DNA from: a virus
Taxonomy: Duplodnaviria; Caudoviricetes
Length of the DNA stretch: 64,000 nucleotides
Virus record (IMG/VR): IMGVR_UViG_3300014205_000003
Location: 96,001 to 160,000 of that record
Strand: one strand, 5' to 3'
Positions 6,583 through 60,937 of the stretch are shown here, in pieces. The position numbers and the translations under genes were made by a program. The notes below the pieces were generated by a model. That model did not search any database and was not told the DNA's origin. It saw only the letters and a list, made by a program, of their open reading frames with translations. The first letter of the stretch is position 1. Every line of letters begins with the position of its first letter.

Positions 6583-8625
6583 GTGATTCCACTCTATTTC
6601 CGCTTAAGGAACTTCTGTCAGCAGAAGGATACCAAAGTCGACTATCGCTTCGGCATTACAGGTCTCATTGGCAACAATGGACATGGTAAATCAAACCTCA
6701 TCGATGCAGGTCAGTTCTTTGCCTGGACAGGCCAAGTCGTCAAAGACAAGAAAGAAGACTATCTGACTTGGGGACAATCCTCAGGCTCTGCTCAAGTCCA
6801 ATTCCAAGACAACAATCGAACCTACACGCTTACTCGTAATCTTCACAACGCTGGATGTACTCTCAAGTGGACATCTGCTAGTGGAGACACAGGTGAAGAG
6901 AAAGGCATCAAAGTTGTCGACAAGATCCTCGAAGAAGACATCCTTGGAATGCCCTTCGAAGTCTTTCGAGAAGCTAAGTTCTGCGCTCAGACTTCCCTGA
7001 TCGAAATTCTCAACATGACTGCTTCCAAGCGTATGGAGTACTTCCAAAAACTTGCAGGTGTTCAACGTGCTGAACAAATAAGAGGACTTCTGCAGACTAA
7101 GTCCAATGAACTTCCCAACGTTATGGATGTGTCTGCAGACATCAAGTCCATTGAGGACTCTGTAGTAGTGGCAGAAGAGACTGTCAACAACGCTGGTGTA
7201 GCTCTGAAGGCTTGGATGGCTACTTTGCCTTCTGAGGGTGCTGTAGAAGCTTTGGGACGCATCAATCAGACTCTCAAGACTACTCGAACTGTTGATGAAG
7301 TGTCAGCAGATATTGTTAAGTGCATACGTATTGTTCAAGAAAACACTCAGCGCATTAAAGACCTCAATGTAGACACTGCTCTGGTTCCAGTCGATCCTCC
7401 GACGCCGGAAGAGACTCTGGCAGCACAGCATACAGGATTCATCACCGCTAATAACAAGAAGATCGAAGATTTGACTCTTCAAGCTTCTAAGATTGCTGTC
7501 TATCAGATTCTTTCCAAGCCGGATACCAAACAAGTAGAAGACTTCCGAGAACTGTTAGGTAAGCAGCGTCCACTGTATGAAAGTGCTAAGACAGGTAAAT
7601 GTGAAACCTGTAAGCGTCCCTTTGAGTTTCAGGAAGATCCCAAAGAGATTATCAAGCGCTTCGAGGAAGCTGAGAAGGTCTTTGCGCTGGCTTCTGCAGA
7701 ACTCAAGCGTCAGCAGAGTGATTATGAGAAGAACACTCAAGACATTGTAAGAGCTTCTACTTCCAAGTCTGGCCTGACTAGGCAGGTTGCGGAATTGGAA
7801 GCAGATAACACTCGGAGACAAGCTTCCATACCCTCAGGCTTTGCTTTAGCTATCTATGAGCAGAAAGTTGCTAAGTATCAGACTTGGCAGAGTCAACAGG
7901 CTCACTTGAACAGCGTTCAGAAGCAAGTCAAGGAATATGAGAAGGCTATCCTAAGTGCACAGATGTGCGCGGAACAGCTGAAGAAGGAGCCTGAGCTTAC
8001 CAAGGAAGACGTTGAGAAGTTGACTCAGGAGAAGATTCGGATCGAAGATGCCTTGAGTCAGATCTCAAGCATTCAAACAGCTCAAGTGTCTGCTCAAGCT
8101 CTCATTCTGAGCAGTAAGTCGCAGTTGGATAGGTTGAAGAAGCAGCAAGAGCAGTTTGTGTTGTATGGAAAGATTAGAGGATGGCTTGAATCGGCTAGGA
8201 CATATCTGCACAGGGATGTTCTGCCTAAATTCGTGATGAGTCGACTTTTGACAGGTATGAACTCATGCTTGTCGTACTACTTGGCTCGCTTCAACGCTCC
8301 GTACAATGCTCGAGTGGATGAGAACTTTCAGTTCAAGGTTCAGTTCAAGACTGGCCCTGAGGTGTCTGCTTCTCGACTGTCTGGTGGCGAGTCTGTAGCG
8401 CTTGTGGTGGCGTTTCGCTTCGCATTGGCTGAACTGCTAGGGAAATCCTTTCCACTATTGGTAATGGATGAGCCTACAGCTTGGCTAGATCAGGAGAAGA
8501 AGCAGGTGATGGTTGATGTATTGAAAACGGCTAAGGGATTTGCTGAGAAGGGTTCGTATGTGTTCGTAGTTACACATGATCACATTCTGCTTCCGGCAAT
8601 GACACGCACGATAGAGGTTGAATAG
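6583..8625 (+). CDS. sbcC: SbcC/Rad50-like ATPase
   Basis: Walker A GNNGHGKS, coiled coil with CETC zinc hook, LSGGE signature, MDEPT Walker B, VTHD. Confidence 0.92.
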   Translation: MIPLYFRLRNFCQQKDTKVDYRFGITGLIGNNGHGKSNLIDAGQFFAWTGQVVKDKKEDYLTWGQSSGSAQVQFQDNNRTYTLTRNLHNAGCTLKWTSASGDTGEEKGIKVVDKILEEDILGMPFEVFREAKFCAQTSLIEILNMTASKRMEYFQKLAGVQRAEQIRGLLQTKSNELPNVMDVSADIKSIEDSVVVAEETVNNAGVALKAWMATLPSEGAVEALGRINQTLKTTRTVDEVSADIVKCIRIVQENTQRIKDLNVDTALVPVDPPTPEETLAAQHTGFITANNKKIEDLTLQASKIAVYQILSKPDTKQVEDFRELLGKQRPLYESAKTGKCETCKRPFEFQEDPKEIIKRFEEAEKVFALASAELKRQQSDYEKNTQDIVRASTSKSGLTRQVAELEADNTRRQASIPSGFALAIYEQKVAKYQTWQSQQAHLNSVQKQVKEYEKAILSAQMCAEQLKKEPELTKEDVEKLTQEKIRIEDALSQISSIQTAQVSAQALILSSKSQLDRLKKQQEQFVLYGKIRGWLESARTYLHRDVLPKFVMSRLLTGMNSCLSYYLARFNAPYNARVDENFQFKVQFKTGPEVSASRLSGGESVALVVAFRFALAELLGKSFPLLVMDEPTAWLDQEKKQVMVDVLKTAKGFAEKGSYVFVVTHDHILLPAMTRTIEVE

Positions 8626-11907: not shown

Positions 11908-12335
11908 GCTACGCTTGTGTGGGATTAAGTAATCCCAAGAACATTCACAACATCGGATCTGTCCTGAGAGCTGCTGGTTGCTTCAAGGTTGATCTGGTAG
12001 CAATCTCTGGTATGAGATATCGTAGAGCTGGCACAGATACGATGGCAGCGTACAAGCATCTTCCTCTTCTGCAGGTAAACGATCTTCACGGCGTCATTCC
12101 CTATGATTGCATCCCTGTAGCTGTAGAACTTGTGGAACGCGCAACAAGTCTTCTATCTTATAAACATCCAGACAGAGCCTTCTACATCTTCGGAGCAGAA
12201 GACGCAACACTTGGAGAGAAGACCCTTAGTTGGTGTAGAGACGTTATCTACATTCCAACCAACGGCTGTCTGAATCTTGCCGCTTGTGTAAATGTGGTTC
12301 TCTATGATCGCTTAGCAAAGGAGTCTGTAAATTAG
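11904..12335 (+). CDS. SpoU/TrmH-family (SPOUT) RNA methyltransferase
   Basis: NPKNIHNIGSVLRAA, FGAEDATL, IPTNGCLNLAACV motifs. Confidence 0.88.
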   Translation: MSYACVGLSNPKNIHNIGSVLRAAGCFKVDLVAISGMRYRRAGTDTMAAYKHLPLLQVNDLHGVIPYDCIPVAVELVERATSLLSYKHPDRAFYIFGAEDATLGEKTLSWCRDVIYIPTNGCLNLAACVNVVLYDRLAKESVN

Positions 12336-14897
12336 TGAAAATCAAACTTACCGTCCGTCAAAATCAGTTCCTAGTCTCTCCTTGGCCTCTCTGCCTGGAG
12401 AAGGCTTGTACAGTCACCCTTACTCAGAAAAAATTCTTCTACGACCCGAAAGATCCTCGTCCTATTACCTTCACGCACATCCCTATGTATACGAAGCTTT
12501 CTGAACAAGGAGGCATCGTCTACACAGGATTCCTTCAGAGGGTCCTTAAAGCCCTTGCAAAGGAAGAACACGAAGTGGAAGTCGAAGATCAGCGCATCAA
12601 GCCTTCTGGCACGGTTCCTGAGCTTCCTGAAGGCTCTGAAGGATATCGTGCAGGACAGCGAGAGTTCATTCACGCAATCCTCAACAATCACAGCGGTATT
12701 GGACAAGCTCCTCCAGCCTTTGGAAAGTCCTTTTGCATAGGACAGATCTGTAAGGTTCTGTGCAAGGAGAAGATCTTGGTCACTACGTCTAGGAAGACTG
12801 TGGTGACGATGCTCCTGCAACGTCTCAAAGCTACACTGCCTGACAGGCGAATCAAGCTTTGTGATGGTGCAAAGCCATTTGACGAAACTTGTGATATTGT
12901 AGTGTGCTCGTCAAAATCCCTCCACAAGATTCCTACAGAGTGGCCTCAAGTTCTTCTATTCGATGAAGTGCATGGAGCTGCTGGTCCTCAGGTCTGTCGC
13001 GTACTCGGAAATATGACAAATGTCCGTTTCTACGGTTTTAGCGCAACTCCTACTGGCAGAGGGGATAACGGAGACAAACTTGTAGAAGCTTTGTTTGGTC
13101 CTGTTATTTACAAGATGAACTATGAGCAAGCTTTGGCTAATGGTAATGTCACGCAGACACAAGTCCGTATGGTGCCTATCAAAGGTGCCAATCTCGAGTT
13201 CCACGACACTACTGCAATGAATCGGTATGGCTATTGGCGAAACACACAACGCAATAAGAAGATTGCAGAGGTTGTGGAAGCGTTGCAAGCTGAAGGCTTA
13301 GAAAAGATCCTGATCCTTGTAAACACTGCAGAGCATGCCTTCCATCTGCGTTTGTTCCTTCCTAAGTTTAAGATCGTACATGCTGGGCTCTCCTTGGAGA
13401 AGTTCAACGAGTTTAAGAAGAATGGGCTTCTGACGCCTACAGATTCACCAACTGTAGATGTAGATAAACTCGCCATTGAATTCAAGGAAGCCAAAAATCT
13501 GGGAATCATAAGCACGCCTAAGTGGCGTGAGGGTTTTCGCTGGAATGCCCTTCACAGTAGTAATACTGTGTCGAAACTCTCTTAACTGCTGGGAACTCTC
13601 TACACAGAGACAATCAGCAACGAACCTGTCAACACGTCTTGTGGGTGTAGCGCTTATATTAGTAGTGTGTCTAAACAACAACTACAGGGATAGCACTACA
13701 CATGTCTGACTACACAAACAACCGAGATCTCCTATTTCACCAAGTGAAGGTAGGAGATGTCATAAACAACCGAAAAATTCTTCGCATTGTTGGAGAACCA
13801 TTTCGACTGGTAAATGGAAAACACGCGCCTGTTCCTGAAGGGTGGTCTGGCTGTATATACGGCACGTATGAAGTAAATTGCATAAAATGCGACACCACAA
13901 GTATCGTTTGCGGATTACAAATGCAGACAATCAGCTGTAAAAATGGTCCGTGTAGCAAAAGCTTTAAAGACCTGACAAATATGCGTTTTGGTCAGTTAAC
14001 AATTTTAGCTTATGTACCACATTACAACAAAACAAAAGAACGAGGTGTGAGTTGGCTTACACGCTGCGACTGCGGGCGTGAAACTGTTGTATTTGGCAGG
14101 ATTCTTGTAGATCCAAAGCGTCCTAAAACGTGTTGCAACGTTTGTGCAAGAGCGTCTAAGTCACGAAAACGGAGACTTCCTGAGAGTCTTGCAGGATGGC
14201 GAGAATACTTCAGCAAGACAAAACGGGATTCTCATAAAAAACAAAGAGCTTTCGATTTGTCTTTTGAGGAGTTTAGACGTGTTGCAAGTTTAAACTGCGC
14301 TTACTGCGGAGCCGCCCCGTGTTTGATGTATCATCACACGGAAGTTGTGAGAAATGGGATAGACCGTGTGGATAGTAAACTTGGATACACGTCAACTAAT
14401 GTTGTTGCTTGTTGTAAGATCTGTAATAGAATGAAAATGGAGCTAGACTGCCAGACGTGGTTGGAGCATGTTAGAAAAATAGCAAAACACACAGAACAGA
14501 TTCGCTCAACGACTATCCCTAACGGGAGTACACCTAAGCAGGTGGAAACAGAGAGGGTCCTTCCACAAGAAGGACTTTGATATAGTCTGATCTGCATGGT
14601 GACATGCAGCTGCAGGTGGTGCTGCGGACAGTATCTAGCGCATACTGTTGAACACATATGGTTGATTTCCCAGATTTGTCAGTAGTTGTTCGTGCTGATG
14701 GACTTACGGGGTCAATTCCGTCCATTCAGATCGGTGGTCGCAGTGCTCGTGTATTTGAAAATAAGACTCAGGCTCTTGTAATTGACTTCGAGGATCACTT
14801 TGGTCCTGACATGATGGCCAGAAGCGCCAAGCGAGTCTTGAACTATAAGACTGAAGGTTGGCAAGTTGTAACATGGAACATAGGAGATGCTGAATGA
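12335..14897 (+). CDS. UvsW-like SF2 helicase, spliced join(12335..13534,14661..14897), 478 aa
   Basis: APPAFGKS, DEVH, SATP; splicing restores motif V WREG|VDFPDL followed by motif VI QIGGRSAR. Confidence 0.9.
13535..14660 (+). mobile_element. Group I intron in the helicase gene, carrying an endonuclease ORF
   Basis: 5' exon ends in U; P1 GAGGGU/GCCCUU; core AACTGCTGGGAA, AATCAGCA, CAACGACTA, GATATAGTC; terminal G at 14660; in-frame join. Confidence 0.92.
13702..14580 (+). CDS. Intron-encoded HNH-type homing endonuclease
   Basis: DLTNMRFGQL...WLTRCDCG N-terminal motif; CAYCG...NGIDRVDSKLGYTSTNVVACCKICNRMK nuclease domain; C-terminus overlaps the intron core. Confidence 0.85.
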   Translation: MSDYTNNRDLLFHQVKVGDVINNRKILRIVGEPFRLVNGKHAPVPEGWSGCIYGTYEVNCIKCDTTSIVCGLQMQTISCKNGPCSKSFKDLTNMRFGQLTILAYVPHYNKTKERGVSWLTRCDCGRETVVFGRILVDPKRPKTCCNVCARASKSRKRRLPESLAGWREYFSKTKRDSHKKQRAFDLSFEEFRRVASLNCAYCGAAPCLMYHHTEVVRNGIDRVDSKLGYTSTNVVACCKICNRMKMELDCQTWLEHVRKIAKHTEQIRSTTIPNGSTPKQVETERVLPQEGL

Positions 14898-24499: not shown

Positions 24500-27400
24500 G
24501 TGTATGTGATCAGTTCCCAAATGTCATCTCAACAAATGACCTTGGGGAACCATCTGTTCCAAGTCGAACTGTGGGATGGTGTCAAAGACCCGCTCCAAGA
24601 CACTCATCTGGTAATCGATACGGAAACTCTACCAATAGTCTTAGGTAAAGTCCCTCCTGTATCAACATTGCAGATGTACTACCCACACTCAGAATTCGTA
24701 CAGATCGTTCAAGGACCAGAAGCTATTCAACTCTACCTCAAGAGAGCTCTGGAACTAAACCCAGGATGTGAAGTGGTAGGGCACAACTTCGCCTTCGACT
24801 TCGAAGTCCTAGGAGGCAGAAGCAATGACCTGCTGATGAAAGCCGTCTCGCAGTCTCGTGCAGTATGCACAGGCATGAGATTTATGCTCAAAGTCATGTC
24901 AGAAGGAAAATGGCAAGACCATCAAAAATGGTCGCTAGATTTCTGCCTTAAAAGCTTCCACGGATTAGTGTTAGAGAAGGATCAAGAGCTTCGACTGTCC
25001 TTCAAGCCTGACGTGCCTCTCACAGATGCTCAAATACACTACGCAGCCTTAGACCCTGTAGCAACTTGGATGGTGTACGAAGCCATGCCAAACAAAATGC
25101 CTACAGAAGGCGTGCAAGTCAAAGGAGCTATCTGCTTAAACCGCATAAGTATCAATGGCTTGAGAGTCAATCGAAAGAAGCTTAAGAGCCTGCAGGAGAA
25201 GTTCGAGAAAGCTGTAAAGCTCCATGAGAACGTCTTGCATGCTTTCGGATACTTCATCAAGGTTAAGAACAACACTCAACGTCTTCAGGCAATCCTGAGA
25301 AACATTGAGTTGCGTTCTGGATTAGTGTTCCCAAGACAGACGAAGAACCCTGATAAGATATGCACAGGTGCTAAACTCGTAGCCTTGTATCCTGATAATG
25401 TTCATCCGTTCCTGTCAGCAGCTAAAGAACAAGCTCATGCTAACAAGATGCTGAGTACGTTCTTGAACGATCGATTCATTGGTGAAGATGAACGTGTTCA
25501 TCCACGAATAAACTCGATGCTTGCTACGACTAGAACAGCTATGTCAGATCCTCCTATGCAGACTATCCCTAAGGGGGACGACATTCGAGGACAGTATGAA
25601 GCGGCTCTAGGTTTCTGTCTGCTTGCATGTGACTATTGTCAGCAGGAGCTCTTAGCACTTGCAGAGAACTGTTTCATCCGATTCGGATTCTCCAAGATGA
25701 TGGAAGTTATCCAATCAGGCGTGGATATCCACAAATGGTTTGGTAAGCTGATCATGCAACAAAGCGGTGGAAACATCAATGATGGTACGGACTATAGACA
25801 ATTGGCTAGAAATACTTGGCCCCTTGCAGTGTGAACTGCATTGAAGAAGTAGGCTAATTCGGTGAACGCTTAACAGGTAATGCTGATGCCAACGCCGAGC
25901 TAAGTGGAAGACTATTCTTCCTAAACGTGTAGAGCACATATACCTGCACTCTCGATTTGAGAGGATAACATGTGCCAGACCACGAACCTCTGAAGGGCGT
26001 CGAAAGACGAAGTGGTAAGAAGTCAACGAATTTCGGTATAGACAAATAACAAACGTTAAAACAGTTTCAAACCCTTTTGTAATTTGCCTGTATATTAGTG
26101 TAGATTCTAAACAAAGGAGACTACGCTATGTTAACAGGCATTTGTGCTTATTGTAAAAAAGAGTTTAAGGCGCAAAGAAGCACGCGACGGTTCTGCTCTA
26201 GTTACTGCAAATCCACATCTGGTTTCAAAGAAAAAGCAGCAAGTATGCCTCCTCACACTTGTATAACATGTGGAACTGTGTATCAACCACAGTGGCCTAA
26301 ACAAGTAAAGTTTTGTAGTCGGAGTTGTGAAGTAACGTACTCACATGCTAATCACTGGTCCATGAAAGACAGGGTTTGTATTACATGTGAGAAGACTTTT
26401 CAATCTCTCCGAAAAGACTGTAAAGAGTGTGAAGATTGTTTTAAGGAACGAACGAGGGCTTCAGTTCTTGCTGCTAGTTTAAAGTATTTCCCTAATCGTA
26501 AACTTGGAATAGGGAGCGGTGGTGGGCAGCACTACGACCCTAGTAAAGGGGCTAGACAAGCCCCTTCTGATTCCACGTATAGACGCAGAGGCCTAGAGGC
26601 TCATGGGAAAGAATGTCAACATTGTGGATTTACGAAGTATCCAGAGATTCTTGTTGTACATCACATAGACATGGACAGGACAAACAGCAATATTGAAAAC
26701 CTTGCTGTACTCTGTCCTAATTGTCATGCGTATTTACATCGAGAACTCAAGAGACGTGTGTGGGCTGGTTACGACATGTCGAAAAATCTTTGCTCCACTG
26801 TTTTTAACGAGATTAGAAATGCCGAAGTAAAATCGCGGAATGAAGCGGGGAACTCCTATCCAACAGTAGGACAATCCGAACCGAAGGCTAGTGGGGACAC
26901 TAGTCAGGGGCAACGCATACCAGCAGAGGAAGAACTCCTATCAGCTGACACGAGGCCGCGAAACTCTTAACAGAGTTAAAAGATATGCTGGACTACAGAT
27001 ATACATAAAACTGTAGAAGCAGAGGATAACAAACCTTTGCGCTAACACAACGTTTCCTGGTGGATTGAGAGAGAAGACCTTCATTGAGTATGCTAAGACG
27101 AATTATGGCGTAACTGTTACCTTTGATCAAGCTGTAATGCTTCGTGAGTTGTGGTTGAAATCTTTCCCTGAAATGGAGTTGCATCTCCAACCAGAGAAAG
27201 ATCCTTCGCATCCTGACATGTTCATTGCCAAGAACATTCAGGGTTGGGTCAAGCCTAATACGATGTACTGTGCTGCCTGCAATGCTGCTTTCCAATCACT
27301 CGCGGCGTCTTCTACTAAGCTTGCTTTGTGGGAGTTGTACAGGAACAACATTCGTACAAACTTGGCTGTGCACGATGAGGCTATTTGCGAGCTCGAGATT

Positions 27401-27772
27401 GGCCCTAACTTGCAGAAGGAAGTTGCGCTTGTACAGGAGTGTATGATCAAGGGTATGGGACGAGTTGTGAAGCATGTTCCTATTCGTGTTGAGTCTGCGT
27501 TGATGATTCAGTGGAACAAGAAGGCTAAGCCGATCTACGGACCTGACGGAGAGACTCTTCTTATATGGACGCCTGACGTGCTTCCATTGACTAAGAAAGA
27601 TCCGAAGGTTGTGGTGAAGGTTGAGGCTTTGCTGAAGAGGCCTGTAGAGGACATGTTGAAGATGGACCCGAAGGAAGTTGCGGATCTTACTCCAGAGGGC
27701 TGGAGACCGCTGTTTAACCACAAAAATGAGGGGCTGTACGGATGGCAACCTCTTGCGTCAGCATATAACTGA
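24500..27772 (+). CDS. polA: Family A DNA polymerase, spliced join(24500..25807,26020..26037,27053..27772), ~681 aa
   Basis: Exo motifs IDTET, HNFAFD, YAALD; motif A CDYCQQEL; motif B rebuilt as RQLA|KSTNFG|FPGGL; motif C VHDE. Confidence 0.92.
25808..26019 (+). mobile_element. ORF-less group I intron (212 nt), polA intron 1
   Basis: Exon ends in U; P1 GGCU/GGCC; P10 ACUU with exon AAGU; AATTCGGTGAA / AACGCCGAGC; P7-like GCACAU/AUGUGC; terminal G. Confidence 0.85.
26038..27052 (+). mobile_element. Group I intron with HNH ORF, polA intron 2
   Basis: Exon UUCGGU pairs with GCCGAA at 26821 (ORF lies in the P1 loop); P3 CGCGG/CCGCG; P7 GCAUA/UAUGC; terminal G at 27052. Confidence 0.87.
26128..26970 (+). 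CDS. Intron-encoded HNH homing endonuclease with N-terminal zinc-finger repeats
   Basis: Repeated CxxC...FCSxxC; CQHCG...VHHIDMDRTNSNIENLAVLCPNCHAYLH. Confidence 0.9.
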   Translation: MLTGICAYCKKEFKAQRSTRRFCSSYCKSTSGFKEKAASMPPHTCITCGTVYQPQWPKQVKFCSRSCEVTYSHANHWSMKDRVCITCEKTFQSLRKDCKECEDCFKERTRASVLAASLKYFPNRKLGIGSGGGQHYDPSKGARQAPSDSTYRRRGLEAHGKECQHCGFTKYPEILVVHHIDMDRTNSNIENLAVLCPNCHAYLHRELKRRVWAGYDMSKNLCSTVFNEIRNAEVKSRNEAGNSYPTVGQSEPKASGDTSQGQRIPAEEELLSADTRPRNS

Positions 27773-58701: not shown

Positions 58702-60937
58702 ATGCTACTCAACGCGGCTCGTACTACTGTTTGGAACTGGGACAATGTCACTTCTTCACTCTGCCCTGACTGCGGCGAAAAGCTTATGGCTCGTCGCTGT
58801 GAAGACAAGATCTGGCACTGGGCTCATTACCCTCTCCCTAAAGGTGCAACCCCTCGTGCATGTCATGCAGAAGAGACTGCTTGGCGCTTGCAGTGGAAGT
58901 TTGCACAGATGTGCAATGATGGCTGGGAGATCGAGAAGCGTGTAGAGCTTGAAGGTAAGATTACTGTTTTGGATGCTTACAATGCTGAACAGAATCAAGT
59001 AACTATCTTCGTTCACAGCACTTCACCTAAGTCCCTCGAACGATTCGAACGTCTCAAGCGCAGTTCCTACAACTGCTACTGGATCAACTAAGGTCCCTTT
59101 GTCTGGTAACAGGCATTGAAAAGAAAGTGAATTGCTGGGACACCTAAAGTGCACATCTGTGCGCCATGGCAATCAGCAGCCGACCTCTTAATAGACCCTA
59201 GTGGCCTCTAAGAGAAGGTTCAACGACTAGTCCGTAAGGACGTAGGGTCAAGCGGCCCGAAGCACTCTCTCCTGAGCAATTAGGAGAATGATATAGCCTT
59301 TGCCACAGTGAAAATTGTGGGAGTCCTGATTAACCATCAGCAAACCGGCAGTACTTAGCGAGTACTGTTGAAAACAACTATACGAAGTAGAAATTTCGTT
59401 TTGTTTCTCAAGTAGTTTACAAATTCTGATTTGATGTATTATAATAATCCATATGCAGCGTTCACATAAAATTCGATTAGATCCTACAGTCAAGCAAGAA
59501 GTCGCAATGCGACAAGCTGCTGGAACTGCGAGATTTACTTGGAATTACGCGCTGGCTATGTGGAAAAAGCAATACGACGATTTTAAGCTAGGGCTGGCGA
59601 CTAAACCAGATGTCTACAGTATCTCCAGACGTTGGACACAAGAAAAACCAGATTGGGCTCGAGAAGTTGCATGCGGTCTTCAGAACCGTGCAATTATGAC
59701 TCTCGGAAAAGCTATGATCAGTTTTTGGAACGGGAAGACAAATTTCCCGAAATTCCATAAGAAGTCTGACAAGTCTTCTTTCTATGTGGCTAATAGTCAT
59801 GGTTATATCAAAGATGGCCGGATACACATTACGAATGTTGGAAAAGTAAAACTAGCAGAAGCTCCCCGTTTTGAGGGGCGAACGCTGTGTTATACTGTTT
59901 CTCATTCTGCAGGTAAATGGTTTGTGTCTGTTCAAGTAGAATTGACAGAACCTATTGTACCTAATCCGTCCTTGTCTGTAGTTGGTGTAGACGTCGGGAT
60001 TAAGAACATTGCAGTTGCAAGCGATGGCACTTCGTTGCCAAATCCTCATTTTCTTATCAAGCAACAACGACAGTTGAAATACTATCAACGTCAATTAGCG
60101 CGACAAGTAAAAGGATCAAATCGCCGCAATGCAACGAAAACCCGTATTGCAAAGATCCATCAGAAGATTGTAAATCAACGTCAGGACTGTGTCCACAAGT
60201 TCACTACAGCTCTTGCCAAAAACCACGGCACTGCAGTGATCGAAACACTGGACATCGAGAGTATGAAAAGTTCAGACAAGGTCTGGATGAATCGTGCTCT
60301 CCAAGACACCTGCATGCGCGAGGTCCACAGGCAACTGGAGTACAAGATGAGGGAGCTCGTAAAAGCTCCTAAGTTCTTCCCCAGCTCCAAGACCTGCTCG
60401 TCATGTGGAGATGTCAAAGAGTCCTTGCCACCCTCTATTAGGGTGTACAGATGTCAGTGTGGCTTAGAGATCGACCGCGATCTCAACGCTGCACTGAACT
60501 TGAGAAACAGGAGTTGGGTAACAACTTCTACATGCGTGGAGACCTCTAAAGGGTCTACGAAGCGCAAAACGAAACTCGTTGCCGCTAGGTAACGAACCTC
60601 GTATTACAGCTATGACGGAAAGGCCCTTGGCTCTGCTCGTACACGTCGATGCATGTGGGATGATACGTTGAAGAAGTACATGTTGTATCAACGCATGTTG
60701 AAGCCTGCTGCTATGGGTCTCTACAAGGCTACAGGAGGCGCTGTACATCGCTATGAGGGTCTGTACCACTGTAAGGACGTGAATCCCTATTATGGCTATG
60801 GAAAGGTTCGTGACATTACTCGTTGGACAGCGTTGGAAGGTCCGTTGACGCAGAAGGCTTTGGAGAACTTCCACAGTGCTCTGAGTCTGATGAACTTCCT
60901 TCGCAGGGATGATGAAAAGCCGCAGGTGAGTCCTTGA
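58702..60937 (+). CDS. CoiA-like putative nuclease, spliced join(58702..59084,60610..60937), 236 aa
   Basis: CPDCG...WHWAH...C..EETAW N-terminus; splicing gives YNCYWI|YDGKALGS in frame. Confidence 0.75.
59085..60609 (+). mobile_element. Group I intron carrying tnpB (IStron-like, no tnpA)
   Basis: P1 GGAU|C/GGUCC with U-G at the splice site; core GAATTGCTGGGA, AATCAGCAG, CAACGACTA, GATATAGCC; terminal G 60609; in-frame exon join. Confidence 0.88.
59453..60592 (+). CDS. tnpB: TnpB (IS605 OrfB type with N-terminal HTH)
   Basis: HKIRLDP...AGTARFTWN; VGVDVG, VIETL, SSKTCSSCG, DRDLNAALNL. Confidence 0.93.
   Translation: MQRSHKIRLDPTVKQEVAMRQAAGTARFTWNYALAMWKKQYDDFKLGLATKPDVYSISRRWTQEKPDWAREVACGLQNRAIMTLGKAMISFWNGKTNFPKFHKKSDKSSFYVANSHGYIKDGRIHITNVGKVKLAEAPRFEGRTLCYTVSHSAGKWFVSVQVELTEPIVPNPSLSVVGVDVGIKNIAVASDGTSLPNPHFLIKQQRQLKYYQRQLARQVKGSNRRNATKTRIAKIHQKIVNQRQDCVHKFTTALAKNHGTAVIETLDIESMKSSDKVWMNRALQDTCMREVHRQLEYKMRELVKAPKFFPSSKTCSSCGDVKESLPPSIRVYRCQCGLEIDRDLNAALNLRNRSWVTTSTCVETSKGSTKRKTKLVAAR

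Follow-up and report, generated by a model that had tools for sequence, protein, structure and literature searches.

A pair of independent, self-splicing group I ribozymes from different lineages, lying 18 nt apart, is predicted in the pre-mRNA of the family-A DNA polymerase gene (polA) of the window, the 64,000-nucleotide stretch of phage DNA that was analyzed, and we place the probability of this reading at roughly 85%. Because the two introns cut polA 18 bases apart, six codons of the nucleotide-binding core would sit alone on a tiny exon. With both introns out, the transcript would encode ...RQLA-KSTNFG-FPGGL... within a polymerase of 681 residues, counted from the GTG at 24500. The features are as follows.

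24500..25807, plus strand: polA exon 1, 3'-5' exonuclease domain and polymerase domain up to ...DYRQLA (Pfam DNA_pol_A_exo1 and DNA_pol_A, homologues)
25808..26019, plus strand: intron 1, a predicted compact, ORF-less group I intron of 212 nt (hand fold, covariance model R1, covariation, RF00028 on relatives)
26020..26037, plus strand: predicted micro-exon of 18 nt encoding KSTNFG, the core of PolA motif B (intron-less homologues, L001, Klenow alignment)
26038..27052, plus strand: intron 2, a predicted group I intron of 1015 nt with an ORF in its P1 loop (22-sequence alignment A1, exon covariation of P1 and P10)
26128..26970, plus strand: HNH endonuclease gene (280 aa) inside intron 2 (Pfam HNH and HNH_3; PHROG 1271 HNH endonuclease, 3.8e-19)
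27053..27772, plus strand: polA exon 3, from FPGGL... to the stop, with motif C (Pfam DNA_pol_A positions 295-380, homologues)

The polymerase frame stops after ...DYRQLA (gac tat aga caa ttg gct, ending at 25807), beyond which the exon 1 frame reaches a stop after nine codons, and picks up again at FPGGL (ttt cct ggt gga ttg, starting at 27053). Between these points, 26020-26037 (AAGTCAACGAATTTCGGT) translates as K S T N F G. A T precedes both 5' splice sites (25807 and 26037), the final base of both intervening sequences is a G (26019 and 27052), and a stop codon follows soon after the 5' splice site in intron 1 and in intron 2.

A search of 5.8 billion proteins yielded few relatives of this polymerase. 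With blastn, the region had no match among isolated phages at the default cut-off and short core matches only at E<=1; loci related to exon 1 were sought in viral contigs and none were found. Intron-less homologues carry RQLAKVPNFGLPGGLG (P0005), RQLAKAANFGFPGGLG (P0006) and LGKTANFGLPGGMG (P0003) at the micro-exon site, and as they have six residues there, exactly six, K-x-x-N-F-G, are absent between RQLA and FPGG in the window. In the closest relative (P0002/L001, 78% identity), RQLAKSANFG is unbroken (its last six codons being aaa tca gct aat ttc ggt) and the interruption occurs only after NFG. Since the L001 exon is continuous through RQLAKSANFG, the 18 nt of the window represent homologous exon sequence and the preceding 212 nt an insertion. 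A homologue's RQLAKAANFGFPGG aligns with Klenow RRSAKAINFGLIYG (KAINFG), and by this alignment the micro-exon is predicted to carry what we take, in Klenow numbering, to be the equivalents of Lys758 and Phe762.

An earlier note on this DNA had described the frame break after RQLA, the resumption at FPGGL and a KSTNFG exon bracketed by an intron-terminal G and a 5' splice-site U, and had placed the catalytic Lys and the 762-equivalent Phe on that exon. Its coordinates and letters are correct (G26019, T26037), the six residues match the gap relative to the intron-less homologues, and the homologue-Klenow alignment agrees on both catalytic positions. Gene callers do miss the exon, as it had remarked, with the exon 1 product listed as a protein of its own (P0001, 437 aa). 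A 9-mer, TATAGACAA, present at both 25793 and 26037, was set aside as a repeat within chance expectation by our own estimate.

The hand fold of intron 1 comprises these elements, all on the plus strand.

25814-25817: P10 strand (ACUU), partner micro-exon AAGU at 26020-26023
25818-25821: guide (GGCC), partner exon GGCU at 25804-25807, giving a P1 of only 4 bp
25825-25840: P2, with a GUGA loop
25849-25853 / 25943-25947: P3
25859-25864 / 25893-25898: P4
25868-25889: P5
25899-25928: P6
25934-25939 / 25970-25975: P7 (GCACAU/AUGUGC)
25949-25963: P8
25964-25969: J8/7 (6 nt)
25979-26016: P9 three-way junction (GAAA loop)
26019: terminal G

All pairs of this model are standard, and its nested version has a free energy of -54.2 against an MFE of -62.8 kcal/mol. 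U25807 and G25818 form the splice-site wobble within GGCU/GGCC, and P1 and P10 together make eight contiguous pairs with the ligated exons. In the proposed mechanism, the GGCC guide would pair with exon GGCU to place the U.G wobble at the splice site, P10 (ACUU/AAGU) would line up the micro-exon, and the usual terminal G would end the intron. A first hand model, with ACCAC/GUGGU as P7, no P9 and a 2-nt J8/7, was replaced, covariation backing GCACAU/AUGUGC. An alternative 8-bp P1 with GGCUAAUU (25852-25859) was also rejected; that stretch is P3/J3/4/P4, and the pairing comes with no P10.

Covariation was assessed with a covariance model, R1, built from the intron 1 sequence alone, and with true relatives that were gathered by scanning viral contigs with two 16-mers from intron 1. 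R1 scored the relatives at 30-78 bits (L078 77.7, L064 71.5, L061 55.1, and others) and gave about 36 bits on IA2-type introns from related loci. In a 15-sequence alignment carrying the intron 1 fold with its P3/P7 pseudoknot (A6), the fold was 94.8% paired compared to 32-41% with partners slid, and 46 of the 57 pairs had double (compensatory) changes, counts that lean to the model because A6 was fitted to it. P3 is the exception, as it is absent from the search model R1 and its counts are therefore not model-fitted; it was 89.6% paired, with four of its five pairs doubly changed. P7 occurs in A6 as GCACAU/AUGUGC, GACUAU/AUAGUC, GAACAU/AUGUUC and GAUCAU/AUGAUC, and P1 covaries with the exon, U.G being the most frequent splice-site pair. 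In MAFFT alignments, intron 1 is misaligned in its 3' half.

Rfam RF00028 yielded no match to intron 1, not even when short slices were searched at E<=10. R2, a model of the 3' halves of the IA2-type upstream introns, scored intron 1 at only 4.6 bits, below significance. On the R1-aligned relatives, RF00028 scored 66.3 (L067), 55.5 (L064), 50.9 (L063) and 26.7 bits (L078), the first three exceeding its gathering score; an RF00028 match serves as a detection criterion for group I and not as a defining property. P7.1 and P7.2 are absent from intron 1. Given the covariation and the RF00028 scores of its relatives, intron 1 is placed, as a diverged member, in a compact group I family that has neither P7.1 nor P7.2.

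Among the relatives of intron 1, the closest (L078, 215-287 and 2262-2333) resides near tRNA genes on a 135-kb viral contig. A 328-aa ORF not recognizable as PolA lies downstream of it, and its 5' exon also ends ...RQLA / UUGGCU.

The silence of RF00028, the R2 score of only 4.6 bits, the short P1 and the missing P7.1/P7.2 would also be expected of a decayed, splicing-dead insertion, in which case polA would be a pseudogene or removal of intron 1 would depend on a protein or on its neighbor. We consider this unlikely, as the window copy keeps every helix of the family intact, its P7 and P3 differ from those of relatives by compensatory changes, and the insertion falls exactly between codons with a U before it and a G at its end. 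A natural relative at a PolA site, that of L037, also does without P7.1/P7.2. In addition, the complete 188-kb phage genome, which has terminal repeats, contains one PolA gene, the interrupted one, and no PolB, leaving it as the sole DNA polymerase gene found (family A or B). From this sole gene in a complete genome, together with the intact folds, we infer that both introns splice.

Intron 2 was modeled with the following elements, again on the plus strand.

26030-26037 (AUUUCGGU, exon) / 26821-26828 (GCCGAAGU, guide): P1, 8 bp, with U26037.G26821
26816-26819: P10 strand (GAAA), partner UUUC at 27053-27056
26833-26838 / 26956-26961: P3
26846-26849 / 26875-26878: P4
26854-26858 / 26867-26871: P5
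26881-26908: P6
26915-26919 / 26984-26988: P7
26921-26947: P7.1
26962-26977: P8
26978-26983: J8/7
26993-27016: P9
27019-27040: P9.1
27052: terminal G

P2 is absent, and the guide lies 784 nt 3' of the splice site, just 5' of P3. Here the guide would pair with the last 8 nt of the micro-exon, looping the HNH gene out of P1, and P10 (GAAA/UUUC) would align exon 3. The 3' 190 nt fold far more stably than shuffles (z = -4.9), and this part has hairpins in common with L002 through compensatory changes. A 23-base conserved pattern identified 41 loci (3 viral and 38 metagenomic), most of them in PolA right after N-F-G and followed by F/L/Y-P-G-G. RNAalifold on A1 recovered P3, P4, P6, P7.1, P8, P9 and P9.1; with P7 added as a pseudoknot, the 48 pairs were 95.6% paired compared to 32-37% with partners slid, 33 of them had changed on both sides, and none of 500 shuffles reached the observed values. 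In some members of this N-F-G family, P7 is the textbook GACUA/UAGUC. Across the family, P1 and the exon covary (UUUCGGU/GCCGAAG, CGUCGGU/GCCGACG, CGACGGU/GCCGUCG, UUUUGGU/GCCAAAG), as does P10 across loci (GGCAA/UUGCC, GGGAA/UUCCC, GGAUA/UAUCC). As the P1 loop of ORF-less members measures 9-11 nt, the HNH gene of the window sits in the P1 loop. ACCGAAG (26880-26886), which is part of P4'/P6 and would give U-A at the splice site, was rejected as the guide in favor of GCCGAAG at 26821, since the latter gives U.G and covaries.

RF00028 yielded no match to intron 2 in the window, even at E<=10 on slices, and gave only marginal, correctly placed matches to its N-F-G relatives (L023 21.7 and L026 22.1 bits); the large group I family of which intron 2 is a member is barely detected by this Rfam model. 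Subgroup IA2 calls for P2, P7.1 and P7.2 together; intron 1 has P2 without the other two, intron 2 lacks P2 and shows a single P7.1-like hairpin, and neither was filed as IA2.

Several further observations were made on this family. In L008 (2890-2900), the exon ends ...GACUUCGGC, which would give C-G with the guide G compared to a near-universal U.G. The window has about 36 extra nt at the 5' end of intron 2 (26038-26074); the L002 intron begins directly with UUUUGUAAAUUGCC, a conserved stretch which matches window 26075-26088, and that of L001 begins UUUUG too. Short matches with about 84% identity to the N-F-G P4'-P6-J6/7 core occur in unannotated gaps of two cultured phages, Bacillus phage vB_BpuM-BpSp (L086, 79272-79320, upstream of gyrase A) and Listeria phage LIS04 (L087, 32140-32183, beside intein/terminase pieces), and may be unannotated introns.

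The earlier note's reading of the region as two tandem group I introns rather than one is upheld by separate cores, each with P1, P10, P3-P9, a terminal G and covariation in relatives. It had proposed a covariance-model search for two group I cores; R1 did find relatives of intron 1, and both folds covary. It was also right that both introns have their own P1/P10 pairings, but it overstated their use of nearly the whole micro-exon, as the P10 of intron 1 takes 4 nt (26020-26023) and the P1 of intron 2 takes 8 nt (26030-26037), without overlap, for 12 of the 18 nt.

Removal of 25808-27052 as one unit, by exon skipping or as a composite intron, would give a product without KSTNFG, and skipping is documented for Twort orf142 and Coxiella 23S rRNA (both cited in PMC10136302) and for the phage SIOphi terminase (PMC11878797). 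For this polA it is highly improbable, given that the 18 nt are conserved exon sequence when compared to L001, their residues align to the Klenow motif, each of two complete cores has its own guide, and the product would miss a motif present in all intron-less homologues. Exon skipping could occur as a minor side product.

Homologues of the HNH protein reside inside the same intron in L002, L008 and L031, and with its HNH domain and intron location it is a candidate homing endonuclease. Over its final 150 nt the HNH gene runs into the ribozyme, beginning at the guide sequence and reaching the P8 loop. A Shine-Dalgarno-like AAAGGAG (26105-26111) precedes the gene, no convincing sigma-70-type promoter was found for it, and a comparison with I-HmuI-type enzymes among solved structures gave no sequence match to the protein. 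We infer that the HNH enzyme would drive homing of intron 2, carrying intron 1 along by co-conversion, and such hitch-hiking of intron 1 on its neighbor's HNH is a reasonable proposal. The two introns are separable, since only intron 2 is present in the closest relative. The ribozyme segments that are most conserved (window 26821-26970; L002, L008) also code for the C-terminal ~50 residues of the HNH protein, and the shared peptide EPKAxGDxSQGQ may be no more than conserved RNA translated.

Split phage genes with inserted endonuclease genes exist, and polA might likewise be split by a free-standing HNH gene into separate polypeptides with no RNA splicing; the listing of P0001 (437 aa) as its own protein, a separate 231-aa last-exon ORF in L002 and a 235-aa window ORF from a TTG at 27065 would all fit. 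Such an arrangement would leave KSTNFG untranslated, however, as it has no start codon and lies between stop codons, and it would not call for the conserved, covarying ribozyme structure around the ORF or for an exon 3 that is in frame directly after the terminal G, so that we give it hardly any credence.

A pair of adjacent group I introns, as predicted for the window, also appears in related loci. In around twenty PolA loci of the N-F-G family the upstream exon is continuous through R..AK..NFG, and in five other metagenomic phage contigs a second intron lies just upstream, at two other positions.

Window: intron between RQLA and KSTNFG, micro-exon of 18 nt
L031, L052: intron between AKA and ANFG, micro-exon of 12 nt
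L034, L037, L039: intron between AK(M/A)A and NFG, micro-exon of 9 nt

The upstream introns in all these loci follow GGCU and have a GGCC guide, with P10 strands that suit their differing 3' exons. Apart from that of L037, those in the other contigs are IA2-like with P7.1/P7.2, and the window's is of the compact family. In L039, where neither intron contains an ORF, bases 1-6 of the micro-exon are required for the upstream P10 and bases 4-9 for the downstream P1, which puts these pairings in competition; as both want the same exon bases, the 9-nt cases would need a fixed splicing order or cooperation. We are evenly divided on whether PolA motif B is a hotspot at which unrelated group I lineages repeatedly stack by the N-F-G intron, with three upstream positions, exons of 18, 12 and 9 nt, and a downstream intron from a large family that current RNA libraries miss.

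The PolA gene of L034 (5338-8946) seemingly has three introns, at motif A (about 7133-7384), after AKMA (IA2-type, 7606 onward) and the ORF-less N-F-G intron (8068-8313); another IA2-type intron lies in a different gene of this contig (3695-3933). Elsewhere in the window, 59075-59320 holds a canonical IA2-type group I core, which R2 scores at 91.9 bits and RF00028 at 44.4 bits, slightly below its gathering score. RF00028 also matches 13525-13704 (14.8 bits) and 14314-14609 (24.5 bits; R2 41.8 bits), flanking a 292-aa ORF (13702-14580) in a helicase-like gene (12335-13585, continuing around 14658), and 13525-14609 is probably one ORF-bearing group I intron.

Phage and bacterial genes with a very short exon between group I introns are known from Staphylococcus phage Twort, where orf142 has three introns with a 23-nt exon between introns 2 and 3, and from Coxiella burnetii 23S rRNA, where a 34-nt exon lies between IB2 and IA3 introns; as cited in PMC10136302, both show exon skipping. 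Compared to these, the exon is 18 nt in the window and 9-12 nt in its relatives, the intron lineages are unrelated, the splicing is predicted, and the exon is the nucleotide-binding core of a DNA polymerase. At 18, 12 and 9 nt, these exons are below the lengths of the published phage and bacterial examples that were found (Twort 23, Coxiella 34). A 'small exon' has also been seen in phiNIT1 (PMC11878797). In fungal cox1 and other organelle genes, mini-exons of a few bases lie between self-splicing introns (PMC10352661) and are invisible to ORF callers, as here; those genes are mitochondrial and their introns often maturase-helped, whereas this is a phage gene.

The DNA polymerase genes of SPO1, Bastille (I-BasI) and Pf-WMP3 (I-PfoP3I) are interrupted by group I introns that carry HNH (nicking) endonucleases, and Bastillevirinae polymerase genes can have two or three introns (PMC3428280, PMC11878797). 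As in these phages, with sites compared by motif, a conserved motif of a family-A (or related) polymerase is cut by an HNH-bearing group I intron, but intron 2 belongs to a family barely seen by RF00028, lacks P2, and has its ORF in the P1 loop, running 150 nt into the core. The crAss-like 'Zeta' phages are intron-rich with genomes of 145-192 kb (PMC7886860); this phage resembles them in genome size (188 kb) and in having core genes with many group I introns, and the OL.. and OD.. accession prefixes of some related contigs are similar to those of the cMAGs in that study. Because introns were found in that study through endonuclease domains, ORF-less introns and micro-exons would be missed there.

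The arrangement is thus a tighter, DNA-polymerase version of a known one and reflects a known habit of mobile introns, and its added interest is in unrelated introns that stack recurrently at a single motif and in a large intron family that RF00028 barely detects. As that model hardly sees the N-F-G family, with its 41 exact-motif loci and its traces in cultured phages of Bacillus and Listeria, the intron content of large phages is probably under-counted. For annotation, ORF callers present an essential polymerase as two stubs with its catalytic residues lost, and the same holds in at least five related metagenomic phages. Mechanistically, the guide pairings of two ribozymes would have to be accommodated on the same 9-18 nt of exon, and these loci offer a natural system for asking whether splicing of neighboring group I introns is independent, follows a set order or involves exon skipping.
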